Source: Escherichia phage vB_EcoM_Shinka. From it: 64,000 nt of DNA. The stretch is from the sequence record MZ502379.1; one strand, written 5' to 3'. The notes under the pieces were generated by a model that had not been told where the DNA came from, ran no database searches, and saw nothing but the letters and a program-made list of their open reading frames with translations. Within the stretch, counting starts at the first letter, position 1; every line of letters begins with the position of its first letter. This document shows, piece after piece, positions 4,051 through 36,766 of this stretch. Both the position numbers and the translations under genes were made by a program.

Positions 4051-5248
4051 TTGTAATAATGTCAAACTGTTCTTTAAAGCAGAAGCTTGAATCTTGATGC
4101 TGATACAAAAATTCATAAGCTTTTTCGCGTTCGCGGTCATAAAGAGCTCGGTCAGATGACAGTTCTTTAATACGTTCGAATGTTGATTCCATGTCATTTT
4201 CATCAAACCAAATGATACCGCTATCATGCGAGGTCAAAGGAGTACTATCAACACGGAATTTTAAATTTTCGCCAGTAGATTTCCAAAATACCGGAATTGT
4301 TCCACATGCACCAAGCTCGAGATGAGTATATTCTAAAGAGCGCTGTAGATATTTTTTATCCAACTTACTCAGCTGATAACCAAAACCGGATTTACTCATG
4401 CGTTCAAGCATTTCGCTATTTACATAACGGTCAAGAATTTGCGTTGGCAAATTAGGAGCAATTTTAATTTGGTCTACTTGATGAAGACGATAATACTCGT
4501 ATGGAATTCCTTTTTCTTTAATAGGAATGAACGCTGGAGAACGTTCCAGACCTTCCATAATAGTACTTAGTCCTGCAGGTTTAAGATGCTTTTCATGAAA
4601 ATCAAACATCTGATAAAAACCTTTCCATGTAGTCGTACGACCAATCCAACGGTTGATATTCATGTTAATTTCAGAAACATCTTTCCAGTAGGTTGACCGA
4701 ACCTTCGCAATATCCATAGGAGGCTGAAAGTTATATACAGTCGGCGCTTCTTCAATATCATCAAACAGAGAAACTGTTTCTGGATACCATTCTTTCATCA
4801 GAACTTTATTAAAATCACCATTATCAGAATGGCTAAAAATAACATCAGCTCGACGAACAGTTTCTTCTAATCCCAAATTTCGACGCAAAGAAAGAGAAGA
4901 ATGGTCATGTTGATAAACTACAACACGAACAGAAGGTTTAATGTTATCAATAATTTTTTTATAGTTATTAATAGTGTCTTCTTCAACCGAAGTAGCAGGA
5001 ACTGAATTAATAATTAGAATATCACAATCATTTACCAGCTTAAGTGTTTTATCATATTCTTTTGCCAATAAAACCGGAATTGAAAATGATTTATAATCAT
5101 GCGCGCAATTACGAGTAAATGATTTATCTTTAGCATAAACCAAAGTTACTTCATGACCATTTTTAATAAACCAATCACGTTGCTCGAGTGAGAATTTTGT
5201 TACACCACAACCTTCAAGACCTCGAGCCATAAAAATACATACTTTCAT
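4046..5248 (-). CDS. a-gt: DNA alpha-glucosyltransferase (400 aa)
   Basis: 400-aa ORF; N-terminus MKVCIFMARGLEGCGVTKFSLEQRDWFIKNGHEV matches recalled T4 AGT; position between 47 and 55. Confidence 0.85.
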   Translation of the reverse strand: MKVCIFMARGLEGCGVTKFSLEQRDWFIKNGHEVTLVYAKDKSFTRNCAHDYKSFSIPVLLAKEYDKTLKLVNDCDILIINSVPATSVEEDTINNYKKIIDNIKPSVRVVVYQHDHSSLSLRRNLGLEETVRRADVIFSHSDNGDFNKVLMKEWYPETVSLFDDIEEAPTVYNFQPPMDIAKVRSTYWKDVSEINMNINRWIGRTTTWKGFYQMFDFHEKHLKPAGLSTIMEGLERSPAFIPIKEKGIPYEYYRLHQVDQIKIAPNLPTQILDRYVNSEMLERMSKSGFGYQLSKLDKKYLQRSLEYTHLELGACGTIPVFWKSTGENLKFRVDSTPLTSHDSGIIWFDENDMESTFERIKELSSDRALYDREREKAYEFLYQHQDSSFCFKEQFDIITK

Positions 5249-5292
5249 TTAATATCCTCTTTGTTTTGGTTTATTTTACCAAAAATTTATAA

Positions 5293-6200: not shown

Positions 6201-6741
6201 ATAAAAAATCCAAACTAGGAGAATCGTCTACAACACTTTTCTTTTCAGCCCCCGGTGTTCTATAGGTTGATTCTTCGTAATGCGTCATTTTATCGTAGAT
6301 GTCTTGAATAAAAGTTTCATCTACTAACGCAACCATATCGTCGTCACGGCTGTCATAGACATTGTGAACGAAGTAACTGTATTTCTTTGCAACTTCCTTA
6401 CGTTCTTTTTTAATACGTTGGACGAATGCATTAAAACAAGCTTGAGTTATATATGCATGCGGGTTTTTATATTTCGTTTCATCAAAATTGTGAAGCCCCT
6501 TAATAGAAGCTTCTATACCATCTGCAATCATTTCTTGTTTCCAAGACTGGGTGTATCCTGAAAAGTTGAAACGTTTAGATAAGCCTTCTGCAATAAGCAT
6601 AATGGCTAATCCGATAGTATCATTCTGACGAACTACTTTATTTGGGTCTTTATTATTTGCTAATTCTGTTTTCCAATCAATAATAGCTTGTAAAAGCTCT
6701 TTATTGTTTACGTAATTATATTTAGGCTTAGTTTCTGACAT
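6184..6741 (-). CDS. 55: Late-transcription sigma factor gp55 (185 aa)
   Basis: Sequence from the second Met ([23 protein letters not shown]...) matches recalled T4 gp55 over its full 185 aa; the ORF track adds two codons upstream. Confidence 0.9.
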
Positions 6742-6819
6742 TTTCACCTCTTAGCTCAATTCATAGATCTATTATATCATAATATTTGAAGATCTATCTT
6801 AAAGCATAGAGGATATCAG

Positions 6820-7089
6820 TTATCTAAGTAAACAGTATGCTTGGAACACTTTTTCCATCATCTTTTTAAATTCATGAATATCTATGTAATGACTAGTTAA
6901 ATCAGCATGATATAAAAAGTCTAAAAACTTTTCATGTGTACTAACATATTCACTTTCATTTAATTCAGAAACATGGCTTTCCCAATATCCAACACCAGTC
7001 TTATTTGGGAAAAATGAAATTTTCATGTATTTGTCAACATAGAAAATGCCATAATTTTCAATAGTAATAGAAATATTAATAAATTTCAT
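6820..7089 (-). CDS. Hypothetical protein (89 aa)
   Basis: ORF in the 55 to nrdH early block; coupled stop/start with the next ORF. Confidence 0.45.
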   Translation of the reverse strand: MKFINISITIENYGIFYVDKYMKISFFPNKTGVGYWESHVSELNESEYVSTHEKFLDFLYHADLTSHYIDIHEFKKMMEKVFQAYCLLR

Positions 7090-8494: not shown

Positions 8495-8524
8495 ATCAAT
8501 TCCTCAAAGGTAATTCATATGTTA

Positions 8525-8554
8525 ATAATACCACGGTTTGAACTTGTTGTAAAC
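8525..8554 (-). promoter_or_regulatory. T4-type early (sigma70-like) promoter
   Basis: Minus strand reads GTTTACA, 17-nt spacer, TATTAT; lies downstream of the terminator at 8630-8648. Confidence 0.55.
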
Positions 8555-8629
8555 AACTTTGTGAAAAATATTTCAGGGAATGATAAGAAAGGAACGATAG
8601 CTTAGAATGGTAATATACAGAATGTAAGA

Positions 8630-9592: not shown

Positions 9593-10063
9593 TTAATCAT
9601 GTGTCCACACCCCATCGGTATTTGACCAAAGTCGCTGATTATCTGATCCTCGCCACAGCTTTTTAGTCGGAAGATTTTTCTCATACTTCCCATCAATAAT
9701 AACATCAACATATTTAAGCATTTCTAGTTGTTTAATATCTTCAAACTTATATCCTGTCCACAACCAAATGCTTTTATTGGGATAAAGATTTTTAATAGTT
9801 TGAACCACAGAGTGAATCACGTCTCTGTTATCAGGATAAAGAGGGTCACCTCCGGTTATAGTTAATCCTTCTATATAATCATTATTCAAACATTCAATTA
9901 ATTGTTCTAGTGTTTCACCAGTGAATGGAACACCATTTCTAGCATTCCATGTTGATTTATTATAACACCCTTCACATTTATGCAAACAACCTGTAACGAA
10001 AAGAACGGTCCTGCAGCCAGGACCATTAACAAAATCGCAAGGATAAAATCTATCATAATTCAT
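9593..10063 (-). CDS. nrdG: Anaerobic ribonucleotide reductase activating protein (radical SAM, 156 aa)
   Basis: CLHKCEGC radical-SAM cysteine motif; start overlaps the nrdD stop. Confidence 0.9.
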   Translation of the reverse strand: MNYDRFYPCDFVNGPGCRTVLFVTGCLHKCEGCYNKSTWNARNGVPFTGETLEQLIECLNNDYIEGLTITGGDPLYPDNRDVIHSVVQTIKNLYPNKSIWLWTGYKFEDIKQLEMLKYVDVIIDGKYEKNLPTKKLWRGSDNQRLWSNTDGVWTHD

Positions 10064-11877
10064 TGGTGCTTAACCCTATGCATGATTTCTTTATTTTTGC
10101 CGAGATTAAATCCGCGTTCGTTCGGATTTCCCAAATAACCACATGTTCTTCTTATTGTGTTCATCTTTTTAGGATCAGTTTCTCCACAAATAGAACAAAC
10201 AAATCCGTTTTCAGTAGGAGTCATTTCATGGGTACTTCCACATGTAAAACATTTATCTACTGGCATATTAACACCAAAATAATCTAAATGTTGTGCAGCA
10301 TAATCCCAGACAGCCTCAAGACCTTTTAAGTTATTTTTCATATCAGGAAGTTCAACATAAGAAATGTGACCACCTGTCGCAATGAAATGATATGGCGCTT
10401 CACGAGAAATCTTTTCAAACGGAGTAACATTTTCTTCTACTGAAACGTGGAAACTGTTAGTGTACCAGCCTTTATCAGTAACATCCTTTACACTTCCATA
10501 TTTTTCTGTATCAAGTTTACAGAAGCGATAGCACAGGTTTTCAGCAGGAGTAGAATACAAACTAAAAGCAAAACCAGTTCTTTCAGTCCACTGTTTAAGA
10601 TGAGCATTCATTTTAGTTAAAATTTCTTGCCCAATATCACGACCGACAAGAATATTCAATTCGTGAATACCAATGTATCCTAAAGACACTGAACTTCTAC
10701 CGTTTTTAAATAACTCAATTATGTCGTCATCAGGTTTAAGACGAACCCCGAATGCACCTTCTTGGTAAAGAATAGGAGCAACAGTTGCTTTAACTCCTTT
10801 TAAGGAACTAATTCTACACATCAAAGCTTCAAAACATAAATCCATTCGTTCATTAAATAATTCGATAAATTTCTGTTCATTGAACTGTGTTCCAATATAA
10901 GAATCTAACGCGATGCGAGGAAGATTCAATGTTACAACACCAAGATTATTACGTCCATCAAGAATTTCATTGCCAGTCGAATCTTTCCATACGCTCAAGA
11001 AACTACGGCAACCCATTGGAGAAACAGGAACAGATGAACCAGTGATAGCTTTATTGTTCTTAGCTGAAATAATATCAGGATACATCCTTTTGCTTGCACA
11101 CTCTAGAGCAAGCTGCTTAATATCATAGTTCGGATCGTCTTTATAAAGATTAACACCTTCTTCAACGAACATAACAAGCTTAGGGAAAATAGGAGTTATC
11201 CCATCACGACCGAGACCTTTAATACGATTTTTCAGAATTGCTTTCTGAATCATTCGTTCAGTCCAGTCAGTTCCCGTACCAAATGTAATTGTTACAAAAG
11301 GAGTCTGTCCGTTTGAACTAAAGAGAGTGTTTACTTCATATTCATAAGCTTGGAATGCATCGTATACATCTTTTTCTGTTTTAGATTGAGCATAATTCAA
11401 CGCATCAGCGATTTGCCATTTTTCTGCATCCTCAATATGTTTTGCATAGGTGCGTTTAACATAAGGAGAAAGTACTTTATCTACATTCGCAAAAGTCGTT
11501 CCGCCATATTGATGGGAAGCAACTTGCGCAGTAATTTGTGCCATAATTGCAGTAGCAACACCGATTGATTTAGGAGTTTCAATCTGTGCATTACCAAGCT
11601 TAAATCCGTTCTCAAGCATTCCTTTTAAATCTACTAAACAACAATTAGTAAAAGGCAATGATATACTGTAATCTAAATCATGAAAATGAATTAATCCAAC
11701 ATTATGGGCATTTACAATATGACTTGGAAGAATACGACAAGCGATATGTTTAGAAACAATACCGGCCATTAAATCTCTTTTTGTTGGAAAGACGCGAGAA
11801 TCTTTGTTGGCGTTTTCTGTATTTAATTCTTTATCTTTATTTGAAATAAAATTTAAAACATCTTTTTCTAAAGACAT
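10060..11877 (-). CDS. nrdD: Anaerobic ribonucleoside-triphosphate reductase (605 aa), uninterrupted
   Basis: 605-aa continuous ORF with C-terminal glycyl-radical region (RTCGYLG) and zinc-ribbon cysteines (CFTCG...CSICG); no intron-sized interruption. Confidence 0.9.
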   Translation of the reverse strand: MSLEKDVLNFISNKDKELNTENANKDSRVFPTKRDLMAGIVSKHIACRILPSHIVNAHNVGLIHFHDLDYSISLPFTNCCLVDLKGMLENGFKLGNAQIETPKSIGVATAIMAQITAQVASHQYGGTTFANVDKVLSPYVKRTYAKHIEDAEKWQIADALNYAQSKTEKDVYDAFQAYEYEVNTLFSSNGQTPFVTITFGTGTDWTERMIQKAILKNRIKGLGRDGITPIFPKLVMFVEEGVNLYKDDPNYDIKQLALECASKRMYPDIISAKNNKAITGSSVPVSPMGCRSFLSVWKDSTGNEILDGRNNLGVVTLNLPRIALDSYIGTQFNEQKFIELFNERMDLCFEALMCRISSLKGVKATVAPILYQEGAFGVRLKPDDDIIELFKNGRSSVSLGYIGIHELNILVGRDIGQEILTKMNAHLKQWTERTGFAFSLYSTPAENLCYRFCKLDTEKYGSVKDVTDKGWYTNSFHVSVEENVTPFEKISREAPYHFIATGGHISYVELPDMKNNLKGLEAVWDYAAQHLDYFGVNMPVDKCFTCGSTHEMTPTENGFVCSICGETDPKKMNTIRRTCGYLGNPNERGFNLGKNKEIMHRVKHQ

Positions 11878-12689
11878 AATTCTAATTTATCCTTTTGAAA
11901 TTCTTCGTCTAAATATGGGTTCCAACCCATTTTAAACCTTTTGATGAAATTATCAATTCTAAATTTCGGTAAGTTTAAATCCGCAAAAATAGATGATTTA
12001 CTTTTAAAATCTGGACTTAAATAATCATATAAAATTTCTGCGTATTTTAACCATAATATACAAGTACCAGATTTAATTGCTCTCGGAGTTTTCCAAGGTT
12101 TTACACCATACATCGGATTTCCACTTCCTTTATGCCTGATAGAAGATGAAATTCCAATTTTAATTTTAGCTTCCTTTGTATGCGAAAATCCACGATGTGG
12201 ATTTTCTTTCCAGTATTTTTTAGAAGCTTCTGATATTTTCTTTCTGGCTAAATTAGTATGATGCTTTCCATAAAATCCATGATTTTTGCCTTTATTACGA
12301 TTTCTTTTAATCATGGTTATTGATTGCTTTTCTCTAGTTTCTTTAGAAGGAGAAATACCATATGTTGTAAATTGGCCATCAGCATATGCTAAATTAAAAT
12401 ACTCTTTATTCCATACATCTTTTTCTATATTCTTTTGAAATTCAGCTTCAATGCTAGTTATTTGTTCATCTCCGACTAATTGAAAATATAATATTTCAAC
12501 TTTCGGCGTTTCTTTCAATAAGGCTTTTTGAAATTCGGAAGATGACGAAGACGAATAATAAAATTTACCATTTTTATCAATAATATTCGTTCCATCAAAA
12601 GTGCAATTGGTTTTACTTCCAATGTAATAATATGGTGGGATTTTAGCATTAATTCTATTAATAAATGATAGTTTATATACTACATTCAT
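11868..12689 (-). CDS. Free-standing GIY-YIG homing endonuclease-like protein (273 aa)
   Basis: N-terminal VVYKLSF and YYYIGSKTN motifs (GIY-YIG) plus basic NUMOD3-like repeats (KGKNHGFYGKHHT, HKGSGNPMYG); overlaps gene 49 stop and nrdD start. Confidence 0.7.
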   Translation of the reverse strand: MNVVYKLSFINRINAKIPPYYYIGSKTNCTFDGTNIIDKNGKFYYSSSSSSEFQKALLKETPKVEILYFQLVGDEQITSIEAEFQKNIEKDVWNKEYFNLAYADGQFTTYGISPSKETREKQSITMIKRNRNKGKNHGFYGKHHTNLARKKISEASKKYWKENPHRGFSHTKEAKIKIGISSSIRHKGSGNPMYGVKPWKTPRAIKSGTCILWLKYAEILYDYLSPDFKSKSSIFADLNLPKFRIDNFIKRFKMGWNPYLDEEFQKDKLELCL

Positions 12690-13687: not shown

Positions 13688-13809
13688 GTCCCATCTCCAT
13701 ATCAATTAAGTCATTTATCGTTGGTTCATTATATACTGTTTCTTCATCAGTGTAAACCGGTTCTTCCGGCTCTGGCTCTACAGTTTCCCATCTAGCCGCC
13801 CACCAAGGT

Positions 13810-17071: not shown

Positions 17072-17128
17072 AATAATCTCCTCAGTAGAAAGTAAAAACA
17101 TTATACCACATCCTTGTGGCAAAGTAAA

Positions 17129-18157
17129 CTAGTTCAGTGCATTTAGTGCATTGTTCAGTTTAGAACGTTGCTTTGTCAGATTTTGAACCCTTGACTGAGC
17201 TTGTTCTAACGCCTTTTCAGCTTCTAGCATTTCATTGGTCGCTTTAACGAGTTCATCATCTACTGCCTTAAGAGACTTTTCAATCGCATCAGCGTGCCAT
17301 TTTTCTACAGGTTTAAAATTTGAATTTTCAGTAGGAAGAAAACTCACTTTATTAAGTTTACATGCATCTATGTTACTTGAACTGTACATCCAACATTTAG
17401 GATCGTTTGATAAGTAATTGGATAAATTTAAATTTAAGGTATCTTGCACTTCCTGCTTTTTCTCTTGAACAATTTCATCCTTTCTCAAAAATTCATATTT
17501 AAATGAAACGATCATATCAAGTTCATATGTTGTTGTATGTTCCCAATTTCGCTCAAAACGAGGTAAAATCTTAGATTGAACAGCAGCAACAACATCCATA
17601 TACTTAAATGCTTCTGTCAGCTGTGATTTAAGACATTCACAAATTGAAAGAGAATTTTTAGTATTAGGCTTAAAGCTAATTCGTGCAGTTCTATTATTTT
17701 CTTTTAACGGTCTTACTTCCATCTGAAGAGTATAACCATCAAATTTCAGGTTCTTTAAGTTAATGTCAGAACCTTTTAATCGACTAGCCGTCGACAAAAT
17801 TTGCTTTAATTGTCTACGGAACAGAGCAATAAATCTCCATTCAATTCGATAATGATTTGGATTGAAAAATCCAGATGATAAATCGACCTTACTTTGACCA
17901 ACGCCTTGAACAATCAAAGGATTTTTATAATCAATAGTTTTACAGAAATCGGTGAGCTGTTCACGAGCAGTCATTTGTGTAATATACCCTGCTTTACTAA
18001 AATTACGCACCCATTCACTGCTATTCGTATACTTAAAGTGATGAATAACACGATTAACTTTATCAGGGTCTAAATTATTTTCACACAAAAATGTCATAAC
18101 ATCACGAGTATAGCTGGCATTACGAACCATATCTTCAATTTGAGAACGAGTTTTCAT
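17129..18157 (-). CDS. Member 3 of the paralogous family (342 aa)
   Basis: Starts MKTRS like member 1; shared internal block with member 2; C-terminal coiled coil. Confidence 0.6.
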   Translation of the reverse strand: MKTRSQIEDMVRNASYTRDVMTFLCENNLDPDKVNRVIHHFKYTNSSEWVRNFSKAGYITQMTAREQLTDFCKTIDYKNPLIVQGVGQSKVDLSSGFFNPNHYRIEWRFIALFRRQLKQILSTASRLKGSDINLKNLKFDGYTLQMEVRPLKENNRTARISFKPNTKNSLSICECLKSQLTEAFKYMDVVAAVQSKILPRFERNWEHTTTYELDMIVSFKYEFLRKDEIVQEKKQEVQDTLNLNLSNYLSNDPKCWMYSSSNIDACKLNKVSFLPTENSNFKPVEKWHADAIEKSLKAVDDELVKATNEMLEAEKALEQAQSRVQNLTKQRSKLNNALNALN

Positions 18158-19524: not shown

Positions 19525-20052
19525 TTATGCGAGTACCGTCTTTAACCGTTCTTCAAACTTCCGAAGAGTATTTTGGCGTTCAGCTCTTTGCTTTTTGTAA
19601 GTTTCAATACGCTCTGAAATGAGAGTGTATCGTTCATTTACTGATTCTTTCATAAAATCAGGAATTTCACGAGAAGCTTTAATCTCGTCAAATTTATCAA
19701 TAACTGCTTGCTCTTCAGCAATTAAGTTATCATACATCAAAATATCTTTCTTGATGAACTCAATATCTTCTTGAGTTACACGAGATAATTTAGATGCTTT
19801 ATCCTTTTTGTACTGTTCGTTAGTATCACGAGACCAGTGTAATGTACGATTTTTATTCGTATTCTTGTAAATTTCTACAATACCAATCTCATCGATAATA
19901 ACGATCCAATTCCAACGAGATTTGTAAATTTGTCCTCCGTCAACCGTGATTTCACCTCCGATTGAGATGTCATTAAAGAACTTGCTTTGTGCTTCAGATT
20001 TAAATTTACCATCGTTGTAATTTACCAGGTTGAAAATATCTTTAGCGTTCAT
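19525..20052 (-). CDS. Hypothetical protein (175 aa, helical charged C-terminus)
   Basis: ATG at 20052 preceded by GGAGG RBS and an early promoter. Confidence 0.55.
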   Translation of the reverse strand: MNAKDIFNLVNYNDGKFKSEAQSKFFNDISIGGEITVDGGQIYKSRWNWIVIIDEIGIVEIYKNTNKNRTLHWSRDTNEQYKKDKASKLSRVTQEDIEFIKKDILMYDNLIAEEQAVIDKFDEIKASREIPDFMKESVNERYTLISERIETYKKQRAERQNTLRKFEERLKTVLA

Positions 20053-20080
20053 TTTGTGTTCCTCCGTAGTTGATAGTTGT

Positions 20081-20110
20081 ATAGTACCACAGAGGAACAG
20101 TCTTGTAAAC
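20081..20110 (-). promoter_or_regulatory. T4-type early promoter (repeated promoter module)
   Basis: Minus strand GTTTACA, 17 nt, TACTAT, then conserved TATCAACTAC and RBS; near-identical modules at 32787, 35664 and 36028. Confidence 0.55.
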
Positions 20111-20112
20111 CA

Positions 20113-20427
20113 CTAAAAGAAACTTCTTTCACAATTTTTTCCACTGAACCATGCGCTTACCGCTTTCTTAGTCTCAGGAGCAGTGTTATCCATAAACCAT
20201 TCAAAGGCAGCCTTTTTATGATTCTGGAGGGCTTCTCGGGCTTTAATCTGCTCACGGTCTATTAACACTAACATATGAGCCTTTCTTGTCACCATGGGCT
20301 TCTTATGATTTTTTGAATACTCCCAATCATTTGTCCAACGCATTGTCGTTGCGAATTGAAATACAGCTTCTTTAATTTTAGTTTCGTAAATTTCACGAGC
20401 CTTTGAGTATAACATCATTACCTCCAT
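20113..20427 (-). CDS. Hypothetical protein (104 aa)
   Basis: ORF in the nrdC to rI block. Confidence 0.5.
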   Translation of the reverse strand: MEVMMLYSKAREIYETKIKEAVFQFATTMRWTNDWEYSKNHKKPMVTRKAHMLVLIDREQIKAREALQNHKKAAFEWFMDNTAPETKKAVSAWFSGKNCERSFF

Positions 20428-20516: not shown

Positions 20517-20822
20517 TTATTTCAGAAGAGTAACCTCAGCGATTTCTTCCCAACCGTTTTTGTCGGTCATAATAAAGTCAGCAAGATAAAGAGCAGTACG
20601 CAGTGAAACATTGCGTAAACGATTAACATTGACTTTCATCCATGATAATGCTTTATAAGTTTCTTCATCAGAAAGACCGCGTTTTTGCATCATGTCAGTT
20701 GAAAGAATAACATCTTCAACCCTGACCATAATTTCTTCATTAGTGTGAACACCCAAATCCAAATAAACTGAGCGGGACACTAATGCTTGTAAATGTGGAG
20801 CAAGTTTAGTACCACAGCTCAA
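20517..20822 (-). CDS. Hypothetical protein (101 aa)
   Basis: ORF downstream of the terminator at 20846-20868. Confidence 0.5.
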   Translation of the reverse strand: MSCGTKLAPHLQALVSRSVYLDLGVHTNEEIMVRVEDVILSTDMMQKRGLSDEETYKALSWMKVNVNRLRNVSLRTALYLADFIMTDKNGWEEIAEVTLLK

Positions 20823-20845
20823 ACGGAAAGTAAACCGGTAAAATG

Positions 20846-20868
20846 AAAAAAGTCTCCCGAAGGAGACT
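20846..20868 (-). terminator. Rho-independent terminator
   Basis: Minus strand reads agtctcc-ttcg-ggagact followed by TTTTTTCATTTT, immediately after the stop of ORF 20873-21259. Confidence 0.55.
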
Positions 20869-24974: not shown

Positions 24975-25033
24975 GTTGTTCTCCTCTTAACTGATAGAAA
25001 AATTATACCACAGTCAAGAGGAAAAGTAAACAG

Positions 25034-27204: not shown

Positions 27205-27783
27205 TTAGGAATTACGGGCTGCATTAGCAACGGCATACGCGTACTGAACATTAGCGTCTTTAAACGTACCTTTAGAGGTATCTAGTTCTGCCTTAAAGCC
27301 GCCTTTAGCCATAACATCGGCAAATTCTTTACGGAAAGCCATTGCATCAAGACCTTTCCATGATGATTTATGCTTGGCAAATTCAAGACCAGCGTAGTTG
27401 ACAGCCTTAGCTAATTTATTATCAATAACCCATTTACCGGCTTTAGGCACAAACACCGGGCCTTTCTGTTTGGAGAATAGTTTTAAATTCCAGCGACGAA
27501 GGTCACCGTCAGCTTTAACAAAAGCTGCGTCCAAGTTACTAGCAACAACATCTTGAATATGGCCAAATTTAAGCCCATCAACTTCAATATTTAGATCGGT
27601 ACGCCAGCGAAGTCCTTCCCAAGCGAAGGCTTTAAAGTCGGAAGCCTTTGTAGCTAAGTACCGTTCAATAGGAGCTGTTTTAGGGTCAAAGCCGTTTCCA
27701 GATCGGTATGTCCACTCATCTTTGTTAATGCCTTTGGCCTTTACTACAGAAGCTTCGGCAATAAATTCTTGATATGTTTTCAT
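27205..27783 (-). CDS. ipIII: Internal protein III (capsid-packaged, 192 aa)
   Basis: N-terminal capsid targeting sequence MKTYQEFIAEA with LxE cleavage site and close match to recalled T4 IPIII; own early promoter and RBS. Confidence 0.75.
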   Translation of the reverse strand: MKTYQEFIAEASVVKAKGINKDEWTYRSGNGFDPKTAPIERYLATKASDFKAFAWEGLRWRTDLNIEVDGLKFGHIQDVVASNLDAAFVKADGDLRRWNLKLFSKQKGPVFVPKAGKWVIDNKLAKAVNYAGLEFAKHKSSWKGLDAMAFRKEFADVMAKGGFKAELDTSKGTFKDANVQYAYAVANAARNS

Positions 27784-27811
27784 GTGTTTCCTTGTTTGTT
27801 TTGATAGAGTA

Positions 27812-27841
27812 ATTATACCATATTAATACTTAAGCGTAAAC
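27812..27841 (-). promoter_or_regulatory. Early promoter upstream of ipIII
   Basis: Minus strand GTTTAC, 18 nt, TATAAT, then AAGGA RBS and the ipIII ATG. Confidence 0.55.
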
Positions 27842-27844
27842 CGT

Positions 27845-28105
27845 TTAAGCTTTACCGCCAGAAATAATTCCGAAGTTGTTAAAATCATATCCAATATCGT
27901 CAACATCTACTTTAGGACTTGCTACAACATAAGCAATTTCACTACGTTTTGCACAGGTGTTGATTTCTTTACCATCGCCACCTAAGAAAGAATACCCATT
28001 ACGTTTTAATGAGCCAAAGTCTTCCGCATCACCAATGAAAGCTTTAACTTTAAATTTAGAACCTTTGGCATCTGCTTCAACGATAAATTCTTGATACATT
28101 TTCAT
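27845..28105 (-). CDS. ipII: Internal protein II-like (86 aa)
   Basis: N-terminal MKMYQEFIVEA capsid targeting sequence. Confidence 0.6.
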   Translation of the reverse strand: MKMYQEFIVEADAKGSKFKVKAFIGDAEDFGSLKRNGYSFLGGDGKEINTCAKRSEIAYVVASPKVDVDDIGYDFNNFGIISGGKA

Positions 28106-28274
28106 TTTTCCTTAGTAAATTGATTTACCAAAGTATTTGTACCAAGTCGGACGTTGAGCAATTTTTTCATCTAAGCGTGCTTGACTTATCGCAATGGACG
28201 CTTCGGACGGGACATAATTTCCTCCAAGTAGTTGATGAATGTATAGTATCAAAACCCTTGGAGGAAGTAAACAA

Positions 28275-29515
<1,241 letters not shown>

Positions 29516-31950: not shown

Positions 31951-32025
31951 AGTAGTTCCTTAGGTTGATTAAGATTTAAAATCCATGAGAGTATTATACC
32001 CTGTTATTTGAGGGATGTAAACATT

Positions 32026-32424
32026 TTATTTCATTTTTGCGAGGCAGATTTCATTGGCTTCCCATTGAGCTTGCTTAATAATAGCTTTGGATACAGGAAC
32101 CTTTTGACCATAAGTTTTTGACGTTGAGAGAACAATATATTTGTTTGCCTCATTATGCCAACCCCATGATTTTTCGCCATGAGTACCTTTAATTACGGCC
32201 GACACTTCAACAGAGCATCCATCAGAACTAATCTTGGTGTCTACAATCCATTCATTTCTCTCGACAGCTTCATTTTCCGATCTCATTTTTTCTTCATACA
32301 CGGCGGCCCAATCAGTTTTTGTCAAGCTTAAACTAAGAGCTTTCTCTAATTCTTTGGCAGCCTTTTGTTGTTCGGGTGTTAATGAATTATATAACTCTCG
32401 CATTTCTTTATCTTCAATATTCAT
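32026..32424 (-). CDS. Hypothetical protein (132 aa)
   Basis: ATG at 32424 preceded by GAGGAG RBS and an early promoter with stem-loop. Confidence 0.5.
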   Translation of the reverse strand: MNIEDKEMRELYNSLTPEQQKAAKELEKALSLSLTKTDWAAVYEEKMRSENEAVERNEWIVDTKISSDGCSVEVSAVIKGTHGEKSWGWHNEANKYIVLSTSKTYGQKVPVSKAIIKQAQWEANEICLAKMK

Positions 32425-32449
32425 TATGTTCTCCTCAAGTTATAGGCTC

Positions 32450-32479
32450 ATAATATCTCAATCATGAGCCTATGTAAAC
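32450..32479 (-). promoter_or_regulatory. Early promoter with flanking stem-loop (PeSL-type module)
   Basis: Minus strand GTTTACA, 17 nt, TATTAT; inverted repeat taggctcat/atgagccta brackets the -10 region. Confidence 0.55.
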
Positions 32480-32743
32480 TTATTTCATATTATTGAAATA
32501 TTCTTCTGCGATTTCATCGTTATCATGGTAAACTTTAGAAGACAGTTTAACATAACCTTCAGCAGTGAACATGTTAATCACAACCTTTACAGTATACCAC
32601 TGACCATCTTCATTACCCATTACTGCGTAAGTTTCAAACATCGGATGATCAGGACCGATAACTTTAATATCATTCACTGTACGACCAAAATCTTCTGAAA
32701 CACATTTCATAAAGAAGTTGAACAGTTCGCCGTAATTATCCAT
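32480..32743 (-). CDS. Hypothetical small acidic protein (about 87 aa from internal ATG)
   Basis: The ORF track start lies inside the promoter; the ATG at 32743 is preceded by GGAG RBS. Confidence 0.45.
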   Translation of the reverse strand: MDNYGELFNFFMKCVSEDFGRTVNDIKVIGPDHPMFETYAVMGNEDGQWYTVKVVINMFTAEGYVKLSSKVYHDNDEIAEEYFNNMK

Positions 32744-32786
32744 TTCATTCTCCAAGTTGTTTTCTGTATCAGTAGTTGATAGTTGT

Positions 32787-32816
32787 ATAGTACCATGGAA
32801 GGACAAGGATGTAAAC
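32787..32816 (-). promoter_or_regulatory. T4-type early promoter (repeated promoter module)
   Basis: Minus strand GTTTACA, 17 nt, TACTAT, then TATCAACTAC. Confidence 0.55.
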
Positions 32817-32950
32817 CGTTTTGTGAAAAAATTTTTTAAAAAGTTTTAGGGAATTCTAGGGTAGGGAGGGGCAATTAAAAGATAGGATAATATATTATAA
32901 AGGGTAGAAACTAAATGATGCCTAGAGAGGCCCGGAAAGGCCTAGATACC

Positions 32951-32980
32951 AAAAAGCCCCAACCTTTTGGTCGGGGCTAA
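32951..32980 (-). terminator. Rho-independent terminator (copy A of a 30-nt repeat)
   Basis: Minus-strand RNA forms gccccgacc/ggttggggc stem with G-U pair and is followed by UUUUU; 29/30 identical to 33506-33535. Confidence 0.5.
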
Positions 32981-32985
32981 GAATG

Positions 32986-33459
32986 TTATTTGATTTGTTT
33001 AGCAGACCAAATGCGGTCTTTAATAATTTTTTGGATGTCTTCAACATACTCAAGAGAGTGAGCATGTGGGTTATCTTTGAAACTATAAGCACGAGCTAAC
33101 TTTTGACCTTCAGTTTTGATTACTAAAAGCTCTTTAAGGATAGCTTCATATCTGGAGATAATTCCTTTAACGATATTTTTCTCTTGTGTGACTTTAGGAT
33201 CTGCTTTAGGAGCAGGTTTACCTGAAGCCTTTGCAAAAGCAGCTCCAGTAGCAACTAAACTTTTCCAAGCCATACTAACTGCATTCCCTGTAAATCCTTC
33301 GGCTTTCATATCACGAGCAAATTGGAATCGTGATTCATCGGAAGCATCTTTATAGGAATATTTACCCGCGGCAATGGCTGCTTTTGCGACAGCTTGAATT
33401 TCGGTGCTAGATGCTTCATTTAACACCGCTTCATTTAAAAATTGAGCATATGATTTCAT
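32986..33459 (-). CDS. Internal-protein-like capsid-targeted protein (157 aa)
   Basis: N-terminus MKSYAQFLNEA fits the capsid targeting sequence with LNE cleavage site; TATAAATA late promoter about 35 nt upstream; flanked by near-identical terminators. Confidence 0.55.
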   Translation of the reverse strand: MKSYAQFLNEAVLNEASSTEIQAVAKAAIAAGKYSYKDASDESRFQFARDMKAEGFTGNAVSMAWKSLVATGAAFAKASGKPAPKADPKVTQEKNIVKGIISRYEAILKELLVIKTEGQKLARAYSFKDNPHAHSLEYVEDIQKIIKDRIWSAKQIK

Positions 33460-33495: not shown

Positions 33496-33503
33496 TATTT
33501 ATA
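33496..33503 (-). promoter_or_regulatory. Late promoter (TATAAATA) upstream of the IP-like gene
   Basis: Plus strand tatttata at 33496-33503, i.e. TATAAATA on the minus strand. Confidence 0.45.
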
Positions 33504-33505
33504 CT

Positions 33506-33535
33506 AAAAAGCCCCAACCTTTCGGTCGGGGCTAA
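33506..33535 (-). terminator. Rho-independent terminator (copy B of the 30-nt repeat), end of the tRNA/stable-RNA transcript
   Basis: aaaaagccccaacctttcggtcggggctaa; hairpin plus U-run on the minus strand. Confidence 0.5.
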
Positions 33536-33584
33536 GCCTTGCGGCAACCTTGTCGGGGTTCCACCTGCTAAGGCAAGTGTTTGT

Positions 33585-33850: not shown

Positions 33851-33926
33851 TGGTCGAGGCAGTAGGGATCGAACCTACGACCCAGGACTTAGAAGGTCCT
33901 TGCTCTTCCTTCTGAGCTATGCCTCG
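33851..33926 (-). tRNA. tRNA-Arg (anticodon UCU)
   Basis: Manual fold: acceptor cgaggca/tgcctcg, T-arm gtagg-gatcgaa-cctac, anticodon loop CUUCUAA; CCA encoded. Confidence 0.8.
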
Positions 33927-33930
33927 TATT

Positions 33931-34005
33931 TGGCGGACGTGATAGGATTCGAACCTATAACCAATCGCTTAACAGGCGATCGCTCTGCCATTGAGCTACA
34001 CATCC
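33931..34005 (-). tRNA. tRNA-Asn (anticodon GUU)
   Basis: Manual fold: GGATGTG acceptor, D-arm GCTC-AATGGCA-GAGC, anticodon loop CUGUUAA, T-arm ATAGG-TTCGAAT-CCTAT, CCA encoded. Confidence 0.75.
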
Positions 34006-34009
34006 AAAT

Positions 34010-34096
34010 TGGTGGGGAGTGATGGAGTCGAACCACCCGAGTCGCAATGACAATGGATTTACAGTCCACACCGCTACCTCTACGGGATAACTCCCC
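34010..34096 (-). tRNA. tRNA-Tyr (anticodon GUA), class II with long variable arm
   Basis: 87 nt; acceptor GGGGAGT, anticodon arm GTGGA-CUGUAAA-TCCAT, long variable hairpin, T-arm with TTCGACT loop, CCA encoded. Confidence 0.7.
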
Positions 34097-34105
34097 AAAT
34101 TAATT

Positions 34106-34180
34106 TGGTGGCCCTGGGTAGAATTGAACCACCATCTGGCGATTATGAGTCGCTTGCTTGAACCTTCCAGCTACAGGGCC
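34106..34180 (-). tRNA. tRNA with CAU anticodon (Ile2-type or Met)
   Basis: Acceptor ggccctg/cagggcc, anticodon loop CUCAUAA, T-loop TTCAATT; Ile versus Met cannot be decided from sequence alone. Confidence 0.7.
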
Positions 34181-35447: not shown

Positions 35448-35633
35448 CTATTCACCTTTAGAAATTTTATCCATAACGATAGCAATTAAACCAATTAAAA
35501 ATGCTACTACAAGTGAAAACACATTTTCTGCTGTAGTCAATAATCCGCATATAAATCCAACAAACATTGAAAAACTAAAAGCAGAAGCAGAAATTGCAAT
35601 AGCAACATTTCGAATTAATTCACAACGTTTCAT
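35448..35633 (-). CDS. Small membrane protein (61 aa)
   Basis: Two hydrophobic stretches; ATG at 35633 preceded by GAGGAG RBS and an early promoter. Confidence 0.45.
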   Translation of the reverse strand: MKRCELIRNVAIAISASAFSFSMFVGFICGLLTTAENVFSLVVAFLIGLIAIVMDKISKGE

Positions 35634-35663
35634 TTTATTCTCCTCGGTAGTTGATAGGGTAAT

Positions 35664-35692
35664 AGTATCACAACTAAAACCCTATGTAAACA
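35664..35692 (-). promoter_or_regulatory. Early promoter with stem-loop (PeSL-type module)
   Basis: Minus strand GTTTACA, 16 nt, TACTAT; inverted repeat atagggt/accctat brackets the -10; followed by TATCAACTAC and RBS. Confidence 0.55.
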
Positions 35693-35709
35693 ACTTTGTG
35701 AAATATTTA

Positions 35710-35997
35710 TTACAAAAGATTTTTAGCAATAATCTTGAGATGTGCCGCAGAAATGTGTTTAGCTTTAAACAACGCAGTTTCTTCAGCAGGAGAGATAACG
35801 ATTGTAGCACCATCCTTTTTAGCAGACCACCCATCACCTAGGTAAACAGTACCTTTGATTTCTTCGCCATCAACCAGACTAATCATTGGTTTACCTTCTC
35901 GTCCTTTATTTGCTTTAATAACTTCAGAAGTAAGAGTAGCCTCGGTAATGGTAGAAACCGGGGTAGTTGTAGAAGTAAATTCTTTGAAAGTTTTCAT
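35710..35997 (-). CDS. ipI: Internal protein I (95 aa)
   Basis: MKTFKEFTSTTTPVSTITEA... capsid targeting sequence with ITE cleavage site; matches recalled T4 IPI; position next to 57B. Confidence 0.8.
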   Translation of the reverse strand: MKTFKEFTSTTTPVSTITEATLTSEVIKANKGREGKPMISLVDGEEIKGTVYLGDGWSAKKDGATIVISPAEETALFKAKHISAAHLKIIAKNLL

Positions 35998-36027
35998 TTT
36001 ATTTTCCTAATTAATTTTGATGAGATA

Positions 36028-36057
36028 ATAGTATCACTACCTCATCAACGTGTAAAC
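36028..36057 (-). promoter_or_regulatory. Early promoter with stem-loop upstream of ipI
   Basis: Minus strand GTTTACA, 17 nt, TACTAT; inverted repeat tgatgag/ctcatca around the -10; AGGA RBS. Confidence 0.55.
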
Positions 36058-36069
36058 AACTATGTGAAA

Positions 36070-36766
<697 letters not shown>

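Follow-up and report, generated by a model that had tools for sequence, protein, structure and literature searches.

The 64,000-nucleotide stretch of the Escherichia phage vB_EcoM_Shinka genome analysed here (sequence record MZ502379.1; hereafter the window) carries recurring promoter-like modules of 55-75 bp, several with an inverted repeat, at the head of a number of accessory genes. These modules raise three questions: what they are, whether they move the genes that they precede, and what their hairpins may do. From the letters of the DNA alone, they had been taken for the promoter-early stem-loop (PeSL) cassettes of T4-type phages and for marks of independently mobile early units. We assessed this reading against T4, against relatives of the phage and against the published PeSL literature.

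Census and architecture of the module family

The window is a Tequatrovirus (T4-like) segment with approximately 92-98% identity to T4 34-78 kb, and its top phage matches are Tequatroviruses at 96-97%. All six modules of the original prediction were found on the minus strand, with the G of GTTTAC at 36057, 35691, 32816, 20110, 8554, and 32479. A repeat search that used no promoter pattern returned the same six copies as its biggest family (Table 1). Six further modules (32022, 28272, 27841, 25031, 17129, and the chimeric 20835) brought the census to twelve, all of them minus-strand copies at 8.5-36.1 kb; the half of the window that holds the late genes has none. In 10 of the 12, an intact gene with a Shine-Dalgarno (SD) sequence and an ATG follows; the exceptions are 28272, after which only a denV remnant is left in the window, and 20835, which precedes a truncated nrdC.10. 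Most of the downstream genes are without known function. In the relatives, matches to the strict pattern number 234 on the gene strand and one on the opposite strand.

The promoter reading of the six modules holds: each is GTTTAC-N18-TA(C/T)(T/A)AT, that is, TTTACA, a 17-nt spacer and a -10 element. Across the full set, the -35 GTTTAC(A/T), the 17-bp spacer, and the -10 TAnnAT are exact in 11 of 12 modules; the -10 of the twelfth (20835) is TACTAA, its final base having been lost by deletion. Beyond the two hexamers, the modules are similar in a block upstream (TTTCACAAAGTT), a TGn extension of the -10, and the start region CTATCAACTAC; the consensus is tgTGgTAyWAT with the TTTCACAAAGTT block upstream and ctATCAAc after the -10. 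The spacer sequence itself is not conserved. A promoter scan flagged the TG before the -10 at 36056, 35690, 32815, 27840, and 25030, and not at 32478 or 32021.

Two parts of the initial description needed correction. The copies had been called near-identical, which is overstated, since over 54 nt the copies match the reference copy at 61-76%, and among the six, identity outside both hexamers is 0.30-0.62. The initiation region had been described as conserved throughout, and CTATCAACTAC is exact in only three of them (35691, 32816, and 20110); TCAACTAC is present too in module 28272, which had been overlooked. The longest exact strings that two modules share measure 24 nt for 32816/20110 and 19 nt for 35691/8554, and adjacent modules share exact matches of 6-12 nt only.

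Chance similarity between AT-rich hexamers is virtually excluded as the origin of the family: a generic sigma-70 hexamer scan gave 69 sites against 64.7 expected in shuffles, so that hexamer matches alone are uninformative in this AT-rich genome, but GTTTAC-N15-19-TANNAT-N3-9-TCAACTAC has 4 matches against 0.00 expected, position-weight-matrix scores of the modules are 21-64 bits against a shuffled-sequence maximum of 14, the pattern-free repeat search recovers the family, and the modules lie on a single strand, directly before start codons, with orthologous copies kept in T4. Six strict-pattern matches, at 13757, 8109, 6833, and 38824 (minus) and at 6706 and 23875 (plus), were set aside as chance because they lie inside ORFs, are without the flanking consensus, and fall below the position-weight-matrix threshold. 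A MITE or transposon reading was likewise rejected, given the fixed orientation before a start codon and the absence of terminal inverted repeats, target duplications, and transposase.

Table 1. Modules and associated features on the minus strand of the window. Modules are named by coordinate; repeat copies are those returned by the pattern-free search.
Module	Following gene or feature	Span	Repeat copy	Hairpin	Elements and remarks
36057	ipI (early promoter module)	35998-36069	36017-36070	36018-36047, TGATGAGGTAGTGA/TATTATCTCATCA, z -3.2	Orthologue of T4 PE2; -35 TTTACA 36051-36056; -10 TACTAT 36028-36033; weak SD AGGAAA; ATG 35997
	ipI gene (internal head protein I, nuclease inhibitor)	35710-35997			Pfam IPI_T4, E 7e-54
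35691	trna.4 homologue	35634-35709	35651-35704	35654-35685, ATAGGGT/ACCCTAT, z -1.9	Orthologue of T4 PE1; TTTCACAAAGTT block; -35 35685-35690; -10 TACTAT 35662-35667; CTATCAACTAC; SD GAGGAG; ATG 35633
32816	e.8 homologue	32744-32842	32776-32829	Not significant, z +0.7	24-nt string in common with 20110
32479	ORF 32026-32424	32425-32479	32439-32492	32442-32473, 13 bp, z -5.1	Right after the e.8 stop; 3' arm overlaps -10 TATTAT
32022	e.6 homologue	31951-32025		None, z +1.3	TTTACA-N17-TATAAT
28272	denV-type module	28206-28290		28219-28266, z -2.2	3' arm is SD GGAGGA
27841	ipIII	27784-27844		None, z +0.4	
25031	regB	24975-25033		24979-25025, z -4.5	SD AGAGGAG in 3' arm
20835	Terminator (20851-20868) and chimeric promoter	20780-20868			T4 mobD.5-type promoter joined to nrdC.10 interior
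20110	nrdC.8 homologue (19525-20052)	20053-20125	20070-20123	20057-20099, 14 bp, z -5.1	SD GGAGGAA in 3' arm
17129	nrdC.4 homologue	17072-17134		Not significant, z -0.4	
8554	55.6 homologue	8495-8570	8514-8567	Not significant, z -0.5	TTTCACAAAGTT block

Promoter orthology was judged against the annotated signals of two older partial T4 records, X03016 and L13089; the T4 records NC_000866 and AF158101 hold no promoter features. The 1985 annotation of X03016 gives PE2 with -35 and -10 signals and an overlapping 'pot. stem-loop', and PE1 with -35 and -10 signals and a 'pot. stem-loop, pot. IpI terminator'. Only a few bases separate T4 PE2 and PE1 from the modules before ipI and trna.4, and the PE2-type module is near-identical in T4. 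L13089 annotates -35/-10 signals, including those for msp1, that match modules 32816, 32479, and 32022. The remaining modules are positioned before the T4 orthologues regB, nrdC.8, nrdC.4, 55.6, and ipIII; regB, assigned here to an endoribonuclease PHROG, has a typical early promoter (PMC3014915).

T4 early (Pe) promoters have been reviewed as UP, -35, TGn, and -10 elements with further conserved regions (Hinton 2010, PMC2988021). The modules resemble them in the GTTTAC -35, the 17-bp spacer, the TGn-extended -10, the A/T upstream block, and the start-site positions, and they occupy the same places before ipI, trna.4, e.8, e.7, e.6, ipIII, regB, nrdC.8, nrdC.4, and 55.6. Nothing substantial distinguishes the promoters from those of T4; it is the downstream genes that differ, ORF 32026-32424 standing for e.7 and a remnant for denV. 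Taken together, the sequence features and the T4 orthology indicate that the modules are very probably T4-like early promoters that occasionally serve as crossover points, a system already published. From that orthology and the sequence, we infer both promoter activity and the start site. Each module would act as a very strong promoter for the host sigma-70 RNA polymerase, built of four elements: an A/T-rich UP-like block, the T4-specific -35 GTTTAC(A/T), the 17-bp spacer, and the TGn-extended -10 TA(C/T)(T/A)AT. The conserved start region CTATCAAC after the -10 would be followed by a short leader with an SD and then by the start codon of an early gene, small and in most cases non-essential, with transcription expected to start approximately 7 nt past the -10.

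Gene turnover at and away from the modules

Gain, loss, and replacement of cassettes in relatives are seen at the ipI slot, the e.7 slot, and the second internal-protein locus. The ipI gene is a single-gene cassette between two modules, and in 36 relatives the corresponding 57B-trna.4 slot is filled by 10 or more different sets of internal-protein genes; every alternative gene begins with MKT(Y/F)(Q/K)EF..E, the capsid-targeting sequence. This polymorphism supports the proposal that ipI is a mobile early unit. One relative (L006) has the gene f58 between 29-nt exact copies of the 5' part of the module, and another (L037) has the same layout without that gene.

A similar picture was obtained at the e.7 slot, of which the e.6 module is the downstream boundary. 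Here, relatives carry e.7, an ORF of the 32026-32424 type (f39), or nothing, and two distinct empty-slot junctions both lie within modules. These variable contents bear out the predicted mobility of ORF 32026-32424, which stands where T4 has e.7. The e.6 gene itself is present in all relatives whose locus extends to it. At the second internal-protein locus, the MKT(Y/F)(Q/K)EF..E N-terminus of ipI recurs in ipIII and in ORFs 27845-28105 and 28275-28556, both assigned to 'internal head protein' in PHROGs, and a 32-nt repeat spans three gene 5' ends; the turnover across relatives agrees with the claim that this locus, too, is mobile. In addition, a two-gene cassette of relatives (f50-f46) occupies two alternative sites, always with a hairpin module after it.

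Mobility is weaker for ORF 19525-20052 (nrdC.8), which had been put forward as a further mobile unit: wherever a close relative covers the junction, nrdC.8 follows nrdC.9, and its replacement is limited to T4-like lineages that are more distant, in comparisons between genera. The same module type also precedes regB, nrdC.4, and e.6, whose neighbours are retained (the vs.3-regB and nrdC.5-nrdC.4 junctions are conserved at 0.86-0.90). The claim that modules mark independently mobile units thus applies to ipI, ORF 32026-32424, and the second internal-protein locus and is weaker for nrdC.8, regB, nrdC.4, and e.6. Because stable genes carry modules too, a module marks an early transcription unit and not mobility by itself.

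The chimeric 20835 module sits where, relative to T4, 4.1 kb are deleted, its two parts fused via the 9-nt microhomology GTGGTACTA. A module-mediated origin of this deletion was ruled out, as the event is one-sided and joins the promoter to the interior of nrdC.10.

Of 55 unique homology breakpoints, 10 fall in module footprints, where random placement would give 2.5 (p = 1.5e-4). When gene junctions are compared with each other, breakpoints are found at 7 of 11 module junctions and at 24 of 60 other junctions, no significant excess (Fisher p = 0.13), and mean adjacency conservation is 0.47 at module junctions versus 0.56 at the others (Mann-Whitney p = 0.28). Many indels of the region involve homing endonuclease genes or lie at junctions without a module.

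These comparisons bear on the possibility that the modules act solely as strong early promoters, alike through optimisation for a shared polymerase, with indels ending at them since viable rearrangements must end between genes. We regard this as possible and as the less probable account. It fits the junction statistics, the equal plasticity of many module-free junctions (some with overlapping stop and start codons), and the stability of several genes behind modules, such as regB and nrdC.4; the 6-12 nt of exact match between adjacent modules also makes them a poor substrate for homologous recombination. It does not readily account for events that have both ends in modules with differing crossovers, namely the 29-nt repeat case and the two empty e.7 slots, nor for the two-gene cassette at two sites adjoining modules. 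Moreover, the mini-circles sequenced in the RB49/phi1 system arose by crossing over within flanking PeSLs, between -10 and SD (PMC2839356).

The preferred reading is that of early promoters that are occasional crossover points. As direct repeats with exact matches of 10-30 nt, the modules may now and then offer crossover points to the T4 recombination machinery, and such crossovers would lead to gain, loss, or replacement of cassettes, as in the ipI slot, the e.7 slot, and the two-gene cassette. The predicted role in gene shuffling is only partly supported: individual module-to-module events exist, without a significant excess over other gene junctions.

Hairpins around the -10 element and the Shine-Dalgarno sequence

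A significant hairpin is present in 7 of the 12 window modules (z -1.9 to -5.1) and absent from the other 5. An inverted repeat bracketing the -10 had been proposed for several of the first six; it is found in 36057, 35691, 32479, and 20110 and not in 32816 or 8554. The stem chosen as the example, ATAGGGT/ACCCTAT, exists, slightly displaced from the 35657-35690 given for it (Table 1). In general, the 5' arm lies in the spacer between -35 and -10, and the 3' arm lies just past the -10 or on the SD. Among 114 non-redundant modules of relatives, the mean z is -2.07, 51% have z < -2, and the 5' arm again lies in the spacer. Inner stems around the -10, 6 bp or longer, occur in 52 of 106 modules, compared with 27.9 +/- 4.6 (maximum 38) in a spacer-shuffled null. 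Arm sequences vary between modules with pairing retained, and the stems stand in differing registers.

The 32442-32473 hairpin downstream of e.8 was followed through its orthologues, in which 96.7% of cells are paired versus 27-47% in slid controls. Two pairs are altered on both sides (AU<->GC and UA<->CG). This covariation is suggestive only: it comes from one orthologous hairpin with 7 distinct sequences, and the observed value was reached in 38 of 500 shuffles.

With the module's own transcript expected to start past the -10, the full hairpin would be confined to read-through transcripts of an upstream promoter. There it would most likely insulate the unit, by attenuating the upstream message or stabilising its 3' end. 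In a subset of modules, the hairpin may also mask the ribosome-binding site, so that the gene would be translated mainly from its own transcripts.

For this subset, the hairpin would be a translational insulator in which an anti-SD in the spacer pairs with the SD in read-through RNA. In 28272, 25031 (regB), and 20110 (nrdC.8), the SD itself forms the 3' arm, and the T4 denV promoter is alike. The SD is paired to the region before the start (at least 5 of 6 nt) in 29 of 106 modules, against 19.2 +/- 2.6 (maximum 25) in the null, so that none of 40 shuffles reaches 29. Accessibility of the SD is predicted at 0.38 for read-through RNA and at 0.61 for locally started RNA. There is also a precedent at late promoters, since RBS-sequestering hairpins that span the proximal promoter are documented at T4 e, soc, 49, and I-TevI (PMC3014915). 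The likeness of 28272, 25031, and 20110 to these lies in a 5' arm before the local start and a 3' arm on the SD, leaving the read-through RNA masked; the difference is that the documented cases concern late promoters and early versus late expression, whereas here the promoter is early and the effect is predicted. Against a general role, in most hairpins the partner of the spacer is the stretch right after the -10 and not the SD. The accessibility gap relative to shuffled-spacer promoters is marginal (0.38 versus 0.42, p = 0.07), and SD masking in general was therefore not taken to be the main function. That the early promoter doubles as an RNA-level insulator, with a spacer anti-SD limiting translation in approximately one quarter of modules, is thus a tentative proposal that we think may well be wrong.

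Somewhat less probable still is that the hairpins are terminators or attenuators of the upstream gene, making the cassette a unit of terminator, promoter, and gene. The original PeSL papers proposed such a function for the stem-loops. The restriction of the complete hairpin to read-through RNA would suit it, as does the terminator label given to the PE1 stem-loop in X03016, and an RB49/phi1 PeSL stem-loop cut lacZ expression as much as rrnB T1 (PMC2839356). None of the seven window hairpins, however, is followed by a T-run or detected by a terminator scan, which makes classic intrinsic termination unlikely, and true T-run terminators do occur elsewhere in the region (20851-20868, 32955-32978, and 33510-33533). 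The T-even stems are also AT-rich and weaker than the G/C stems tested experimentally (PMC2839356).

Finally, the inverted repeats might work as DNA, either as operators for a dimeric protein such as an early shut-off factor or as cruciforms that target recombination. The mechanism of early-promoter shut-off has been described as not understood (PMC2988021, PMC3014915), and the PeSL authors speculated on a stem-specific DNA-binding protein (PMC2839356). We consider this highly improbable, as the arms are unrelated between modules, the register moves by several nucleotides, and 5 of the 12 modules carry no repeat. Pairing is kept by compensatory changes that include G-U (G-T) pairs, which points to a folded nucleic acid rather than a sequence-specific protein site.

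Relation to published systems and significance

Recognition of the modules as PeSL-type elements, in which T4-type early promoters embed stem-loops, was borne out by the published architecture. They share with PeSLs (Arbiol et al. 2010, PMC2839356; Comeau et al. 2014, PMC4122927) the order of AT-rich region, early promoter, stem-loop, SD, and start codon; the clustering in hyperplastic early regions before small genes of unknown function; the location, in individual cases, at indel or replacement boundaries between relatives; and stems between -35 and -10 or over the -10, which are among the published subclasses. The window modules also match the T4/PST PeSL consensus TTTACW-N17-TAYWAT reported in 2014 (PMC4122927). 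Several differences stand beside these likenesses. The stems here are AT-rich and variable, in contrast to the G(n)/C(n) stems tested in RB49/phi1; they lie around the -10, whereas a PST figure legend puts them just upstream of the promoter; and the five stemless modules depart from the PeSL layout. Mini-circles have been demonstrated only for RB49/phi1, and T-even elements are described as analogues, not homologues, of the RB49/phi1 PeSLs (PMC2839356).

The T-even internal-protein loci are named by the PeSL authors as the first example of the phenomenon (PMC2839356, Discussion). According to that paper and PMC4122927, Repoila et al. (1994) described these loci as flanked by conserved promoter-containing sequences. 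As these later papers describe them, the loci are the same two as here, 57B-ipI-trna.4 and e-ipIII-ipII-denV, with the same palette of internal-protein genes bearing a capsid-targeting start and promoter/stem-loop modules between them, and on those descriptions no difference was found. Integron cassettes and lambdoid 'morons' are analogies offered by the PeSL authors. They likewise consist of single accessory genes with their own expression signals, gained or lost as units; unlike them, the modules have no integrase, attC-like site, or target-site duplication, and module exchange would depend on short homology and general phage recombination.

Publications thus already cover the promoters, the PE1/PE2 stem-loops, the polymorphism of the internal-protein loci, and the model of PeSL shuffling, and the discovery value of the modules as such is small. 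The idea of a spacer anti-SD that confines translation to the gene's own transcripts is raised in neither of the PeSL papers, PMC2839356 containing no word in 'sequest-' or 'translat-'. Reading the raw sequence alone sufficed to recognise a PeSL-type architecture, and in this data set the shuffling claim is tempered by the lack of a demonstrable recombinogenic excess. The conserved register of the hairpin near the -10 and the start, together with the subset in which spacer and SD pair, suggests a function as an RNA-level insulator; if so, an insulated cassette would be independent of its context and hence easier to move.

Early promoter modules and their T4 counterparts

The pattern GTTTAC-N18-TA(C/T)(T/A)AT was found on the minus strand at all six places listed in the original prediction, and a pattern-free repeat search returned the same six copies as its largest direct-repeat family (D1). 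With the downstream TCAACTAC added, the pattern had four matches in the window and none in shuffles. A position-weight matrix trained on the clear copies and scanned over the window yielded 12 modules, a bigger family than originally described, which we name by the position of the G of GTTTAC (table). The early-gene part of the window contains every one of them, always on the minus strand, which also encodes every gene in the first 37 kb; scores ranged from 21 to 64 bits, against at most 14 for the best site in shuffled sequence. In 76 related loci (IMG/VR), the strict pattern matched the gene strand 234 times and the opposite strand once.

The copies had been called near-identical. Their similarity is real, but this wording overstates it: identity to the reference copy was 61–76% across 54 nt, and pairwise identity without the two hexamers was 0.30–0.62. 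Nor is the similarity limited to the -35/-10 hexamers. An upstream TTTCACAAAGTT block is common to 36057, 35691, 32816 and 8554, the consensus contains a TGn-extended -10 (tgTGgTAyWAT), and the CTATCAACTAC start region is exact in 35691, 32816 and 20110, with TCAACTAC present in 28272 too. The spacer between -35 and -10 showed no conservation across modules. The longest exact matches spanned 24 nt (32816/20110) and 19 nt (35691/8554), and those between neighbouring modules only 6–12 nt. A generic sigma-70 hexamer scan found 69 sites versus 64.7 in shuffles, no excess, indicating that the extended consensus is what distinguishes the modules.

T4 34.0–78.0 kb is collinear with the window at 86–98% identity, with about 16 indels or replacements between, and many Tequatrovirus genomes match the region around the ipI modules at 96–97% identity. 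The modules flanking ipI are orthologues of the T4 early promoters PE2 and PE1, with few base differences. In the T4 tRNA region (X03016), both are annotated with putative -35 and -10 regions and an overlapping "pot. stem-loop structure", the one on PE1 being labelled "pot. IpI terminator". The modules before e.8, the e.7 position and e.6 match -35/-10 signals annotated in L13089, and the remaining modules map before T4 ipIII, regB, nrdC.8, nrdC.4 and 55.6. T4 early promoters have been reviewed as UP/-35/TGn/-10 type with additional regions of consensus (PMC2988021), and the regB promoter was called "a typical early promoter" in the same review series (PMC3014915). Promoter-early stem-loops (PeSLs) are composite promoter/stem-loop cassettes before small genes in hyperplastic regions, with stems between the boxes or overlapping the -10 (PMC2839356); PMC2839356 and PMC4122927 both attribute the origin of the idea to the two T-even internal-protein loci of Repoila et al. 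(1994). The T4/PST PeSL consensus, TTTACW-N17-TAYWAT (PMC4122927), is the pattern written in the original prediction. Taken together, orthology to PE1/PE2 and the match to the published consensus bear out the assignment as T4-type early promoters with PeSL architecture, and such cassettes are already known.

Modules and other features of the window (z, folding score of module RNA relative to shuffled sequence; n.s., no significant hairpin)
Feature	Position	Strand	Detail
57B homologue	36070-36525	minus	one flank of ipI
Module	36057	minus	z -3.2
ipI	35710-35997	minus	Pfam IPI_T4, E = 7e-54
Module	35691	minus	z -1.9
trna.4 homologue	35448-35633	minus	other flank of ipI
Homing-endonuclease absence	33896-34161
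36-nt repeat copy	33501-33536	minus
Classical terminator	33510-33533
ORF, phrog_2280	32986-33459		157 aa
36-nt repeat copy	32946-32981	minus
Classical terminator	32955-32978
Module	32816	minus	n.s.
Module	32479	minus	z -5.1
Module	32022	minus	n.s.
IP-like gene	28275-28556
32-nt repeat copy	28525-28556
Module	28272	minus	z -2.2
denV remnant	28112-28207	minus
32-nt repeat copy	28074-28105
IP-like gene	27845-28105
Module	27841	minus	n.s.
32-nt repeat copy	27752-27783
Module	25031	minus	z -4.5
Classical terminator	20851-20868
Module	20835	minus	z -2.3
4.1-kb deletion vs T4	20780-20868
Module	20110	minus	z -5.1
Module	17129	minus	n.s.
Segment without T4 counterpart	11817-12686		~870 bp, between nrdD and gene 49
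Homing-endonuclease absence	11339-11342
Homing-endonuclease absence	10043-10063
Module	8554	minus	n.s.
Segment without T4 counterpart	6814-7075		~260 bp, near genes 55 and 55.1
Homing-endonuclease absence	5239-5264

Hairpin register and conservation

Folding of each module as a 76-nt RNA, with dinucleotide shuffles as the control, gave significant hairpins in seven of the 12 and none in the other five. All seven have their 5' arm within the -35/-10 spacer and their 3' arm overlapping the -10 or downstream of it; 28272, 25031 (regB) and 20110 (nrdC.8) use the Shine-Dalgarno (SD) sequence itself as 3' arm. No T-run follows any of the seven, which argues against classic intrinsic termination, and a terminator scan of the region reported none of them, finding three classical terminators elsewhere.

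Among 114 non-redundant modules from relatives, mean z was -2.07 and 51% fell below -2. Of 106 modules, 52 carried an inner stem of 6 bp or longer around the -10 (null from spacer-only shuffling 27.9 ± 4.6, maximum 38), and in 29 at least five of six SD nucleotides were paired with sequence upstream of the expected start (null 19.2 ± 2.6, maximum 25). The arm sequences are unrelated from module to module. One orthologous hairpin, downstream of e.8, had enough variants for comparison (seven sequences): 96.7% of its cells were paired versus 27–47% in slid controls, and two pairs were altered on both sides, AU/GC in three sequences and UA/CG with UG intermediates, a pattern suggestive of compensatory change. 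It is unlikely that the hairpins are protein operators, because the arms differ between modules while pairing is the conserved feature. Separately, the T4 reference (NC_000866.4, ~70,340) has an ambiguous N in the 5' arm of the e.8–e.7 intergenic hairpin, ATAGGCTNATG, where all relatives read C or T.

Gene gain and loss at module boundaries

The ipI slot, from 57B to trna.4, was compared in 36 loci around gp57B and is hypervariable, holding ipI, other gene families (f25; f10; f58+f10; f20+f12; f31+f12+f37+f10), several more combinations, or nothing. All slot genes begin with the capsid-targeting sequence known from internal proteins (IPs), MKT(Y/F)(Q/K)EF..E. Homology to relatives with another slot gene spans the upstream module, SD, ATG and ~20–35 nt of targeting sequence, and picks up again after the slot at +17 within the downstream module. 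In one relative (L006), a 29-nt exact repeat, TTAAAATAATTTCACAAAGTTGTTTACAT, flanks f58; in another (L037), f58 is missing from an otherwise identical arrangement. The e.7 slot holds e.7 (T4, L036), an unrelated 132-aa ORF (the window, L014–L016) or nothing; when it is empty, either an e.6-type module directly follows e.8 (L013), or an e.7-type -35 and hairpin are joined to an e.6-type -10 (L037, L051, L054, L056).

The second IP locus of the window reads e, IP-like gene, module 28272, denV remnant, IP-like gene, module 27841, ipIII, whereas that of T4 reads e, ipIII, ipII, denV, and further orders occur in other relatives; ipII is not present in the window. The 5' ends of ipIII and the two IP-like ORFs share a 32-nt repeat coding for the capsid-targeting sequence MK(T/M)Y(Q/S)EF, which adds recombination homology beyond the promoter modules. 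Downstream of module 28272, a strong SD–ATG opens only a 9-codon ORF (MSRPKRPLR*); the next ~100 nt code, in another frame, for a 32-residue stretch that is probably the C-terminus of endonuclease V. At this point L058 and L059, two of the relatives, are longer by 297 bp and carry an ORF of the same family as T4 denV. The remnant is a denV pseudogene.

A two-gene cassette, f50–f46 (~50 and 88 aa), has two alternative positions among relatives, either before nrdC.10 or after nrdC.9 (L052, L056, L075, L078 and L089 versus L061, L067, L069 and L090). A hairpin-bearing early promoter invariably comes next, with a stem sequence that varies by genome. The nrdC.9–nrdC.8 order is kept in every close relative covering the junction; in other lineages nrdC.8 is replaced by f50–f46, f61 or f142/f143. 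The neighbours of regB and nrdC.4 are kept among relatives. The proposal that modules mark independently mobile early units thus holds for ipI and the e.7-slot ORF, whose slots are polymorphic, and for the second IP locus, but is too broad, nrdC.8 being stable in close relatives.

The 4.1-kb deletion relative to T4 (T4 54650 and 58749) removed the 5' part of nrdC.10, nrdC.11, mobD and mobD.1–.5. At the junction, the extended -10 of the mobD.5 promoter shares a 9-nt microhomology, GTGGTACTA, with an internal site of nrdC.10; what remains is a 5'-truncated nrdC.10 after a damaged promoter (TACTAA). Judged from this junction, module 20835 is the T4 mobD.5 promoter fused into nrdC.10 by a one-sided illegitimate deletion.

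Other differences from T4 were also recorded. Two copies of a 36-nt direct repeat, 94% identical and each a classical intrinsic terminator (AGCCCCGACC..GGTTGGGGCT, then a T-run), bracket the phrog_2280 ORF, which is absent from that place in T4; this ORF is a cassette delimited by duplicated terminators, not by promoters. The T4 homing-endonuclease genes mobB, mobC, I-TevII (with the nrdD intron), segB and mobD all lack counterparts in the window genome, and account for about one third of the large early-region differences. Neither segment without a T4 counterpart is linked to a module.

Crossover statistics and proposed function

Comparison with 18 close relatives gave 55 unique homology breakpoints, of which 10 fell inside module footprints (-45 to +75); by chance, 2.5 would be expected there (p = 1.5e-4). 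A viable rearrangement has to end between genes, which makes other gene junctions the appropriate control, and against these no significant excess was observed (breakpoints at 7 of 11 module versus 24 of 60 module-free junctions, Fisher p = 0.13). Mean adjacency conservation across ~40 relatives was 0.47 at module junctions (n = 6) versus 0.56 elsewhere (n = 34), also without significant difference (p = 0.28). Many of the T4 differences are homing-endonuclease genes or lie at module-free junctions. Modules do serve as crossover points in individual events; a role as drivers of regional plasticity is not shown by these data.

By established T4 biology, the modules would recruit unmodified host sigma-70 RNA polymerase right after infection, with transcription starting ~7 nt past the -10. 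This local start is downstream of the 5' arm, so the complete hairpin would form only in read-through RNA coming from upstream promoters. There it could act on the upstream message by attenuation or 3' stabilisation, in the manner of the PeSL terminator model, and in a subset the SD could be masked, limiting translation of the gene to its own transcripts. SD masking by a hairpin is documented at the late promoters of e, soc, 49 and I-TevI (PMC3014915); as a model for these early modules, it is supported for a subset and marginal as a general property. Reading the hairpin register as an RNA-level insulator would be the sole mildly new angle on this promoter family.
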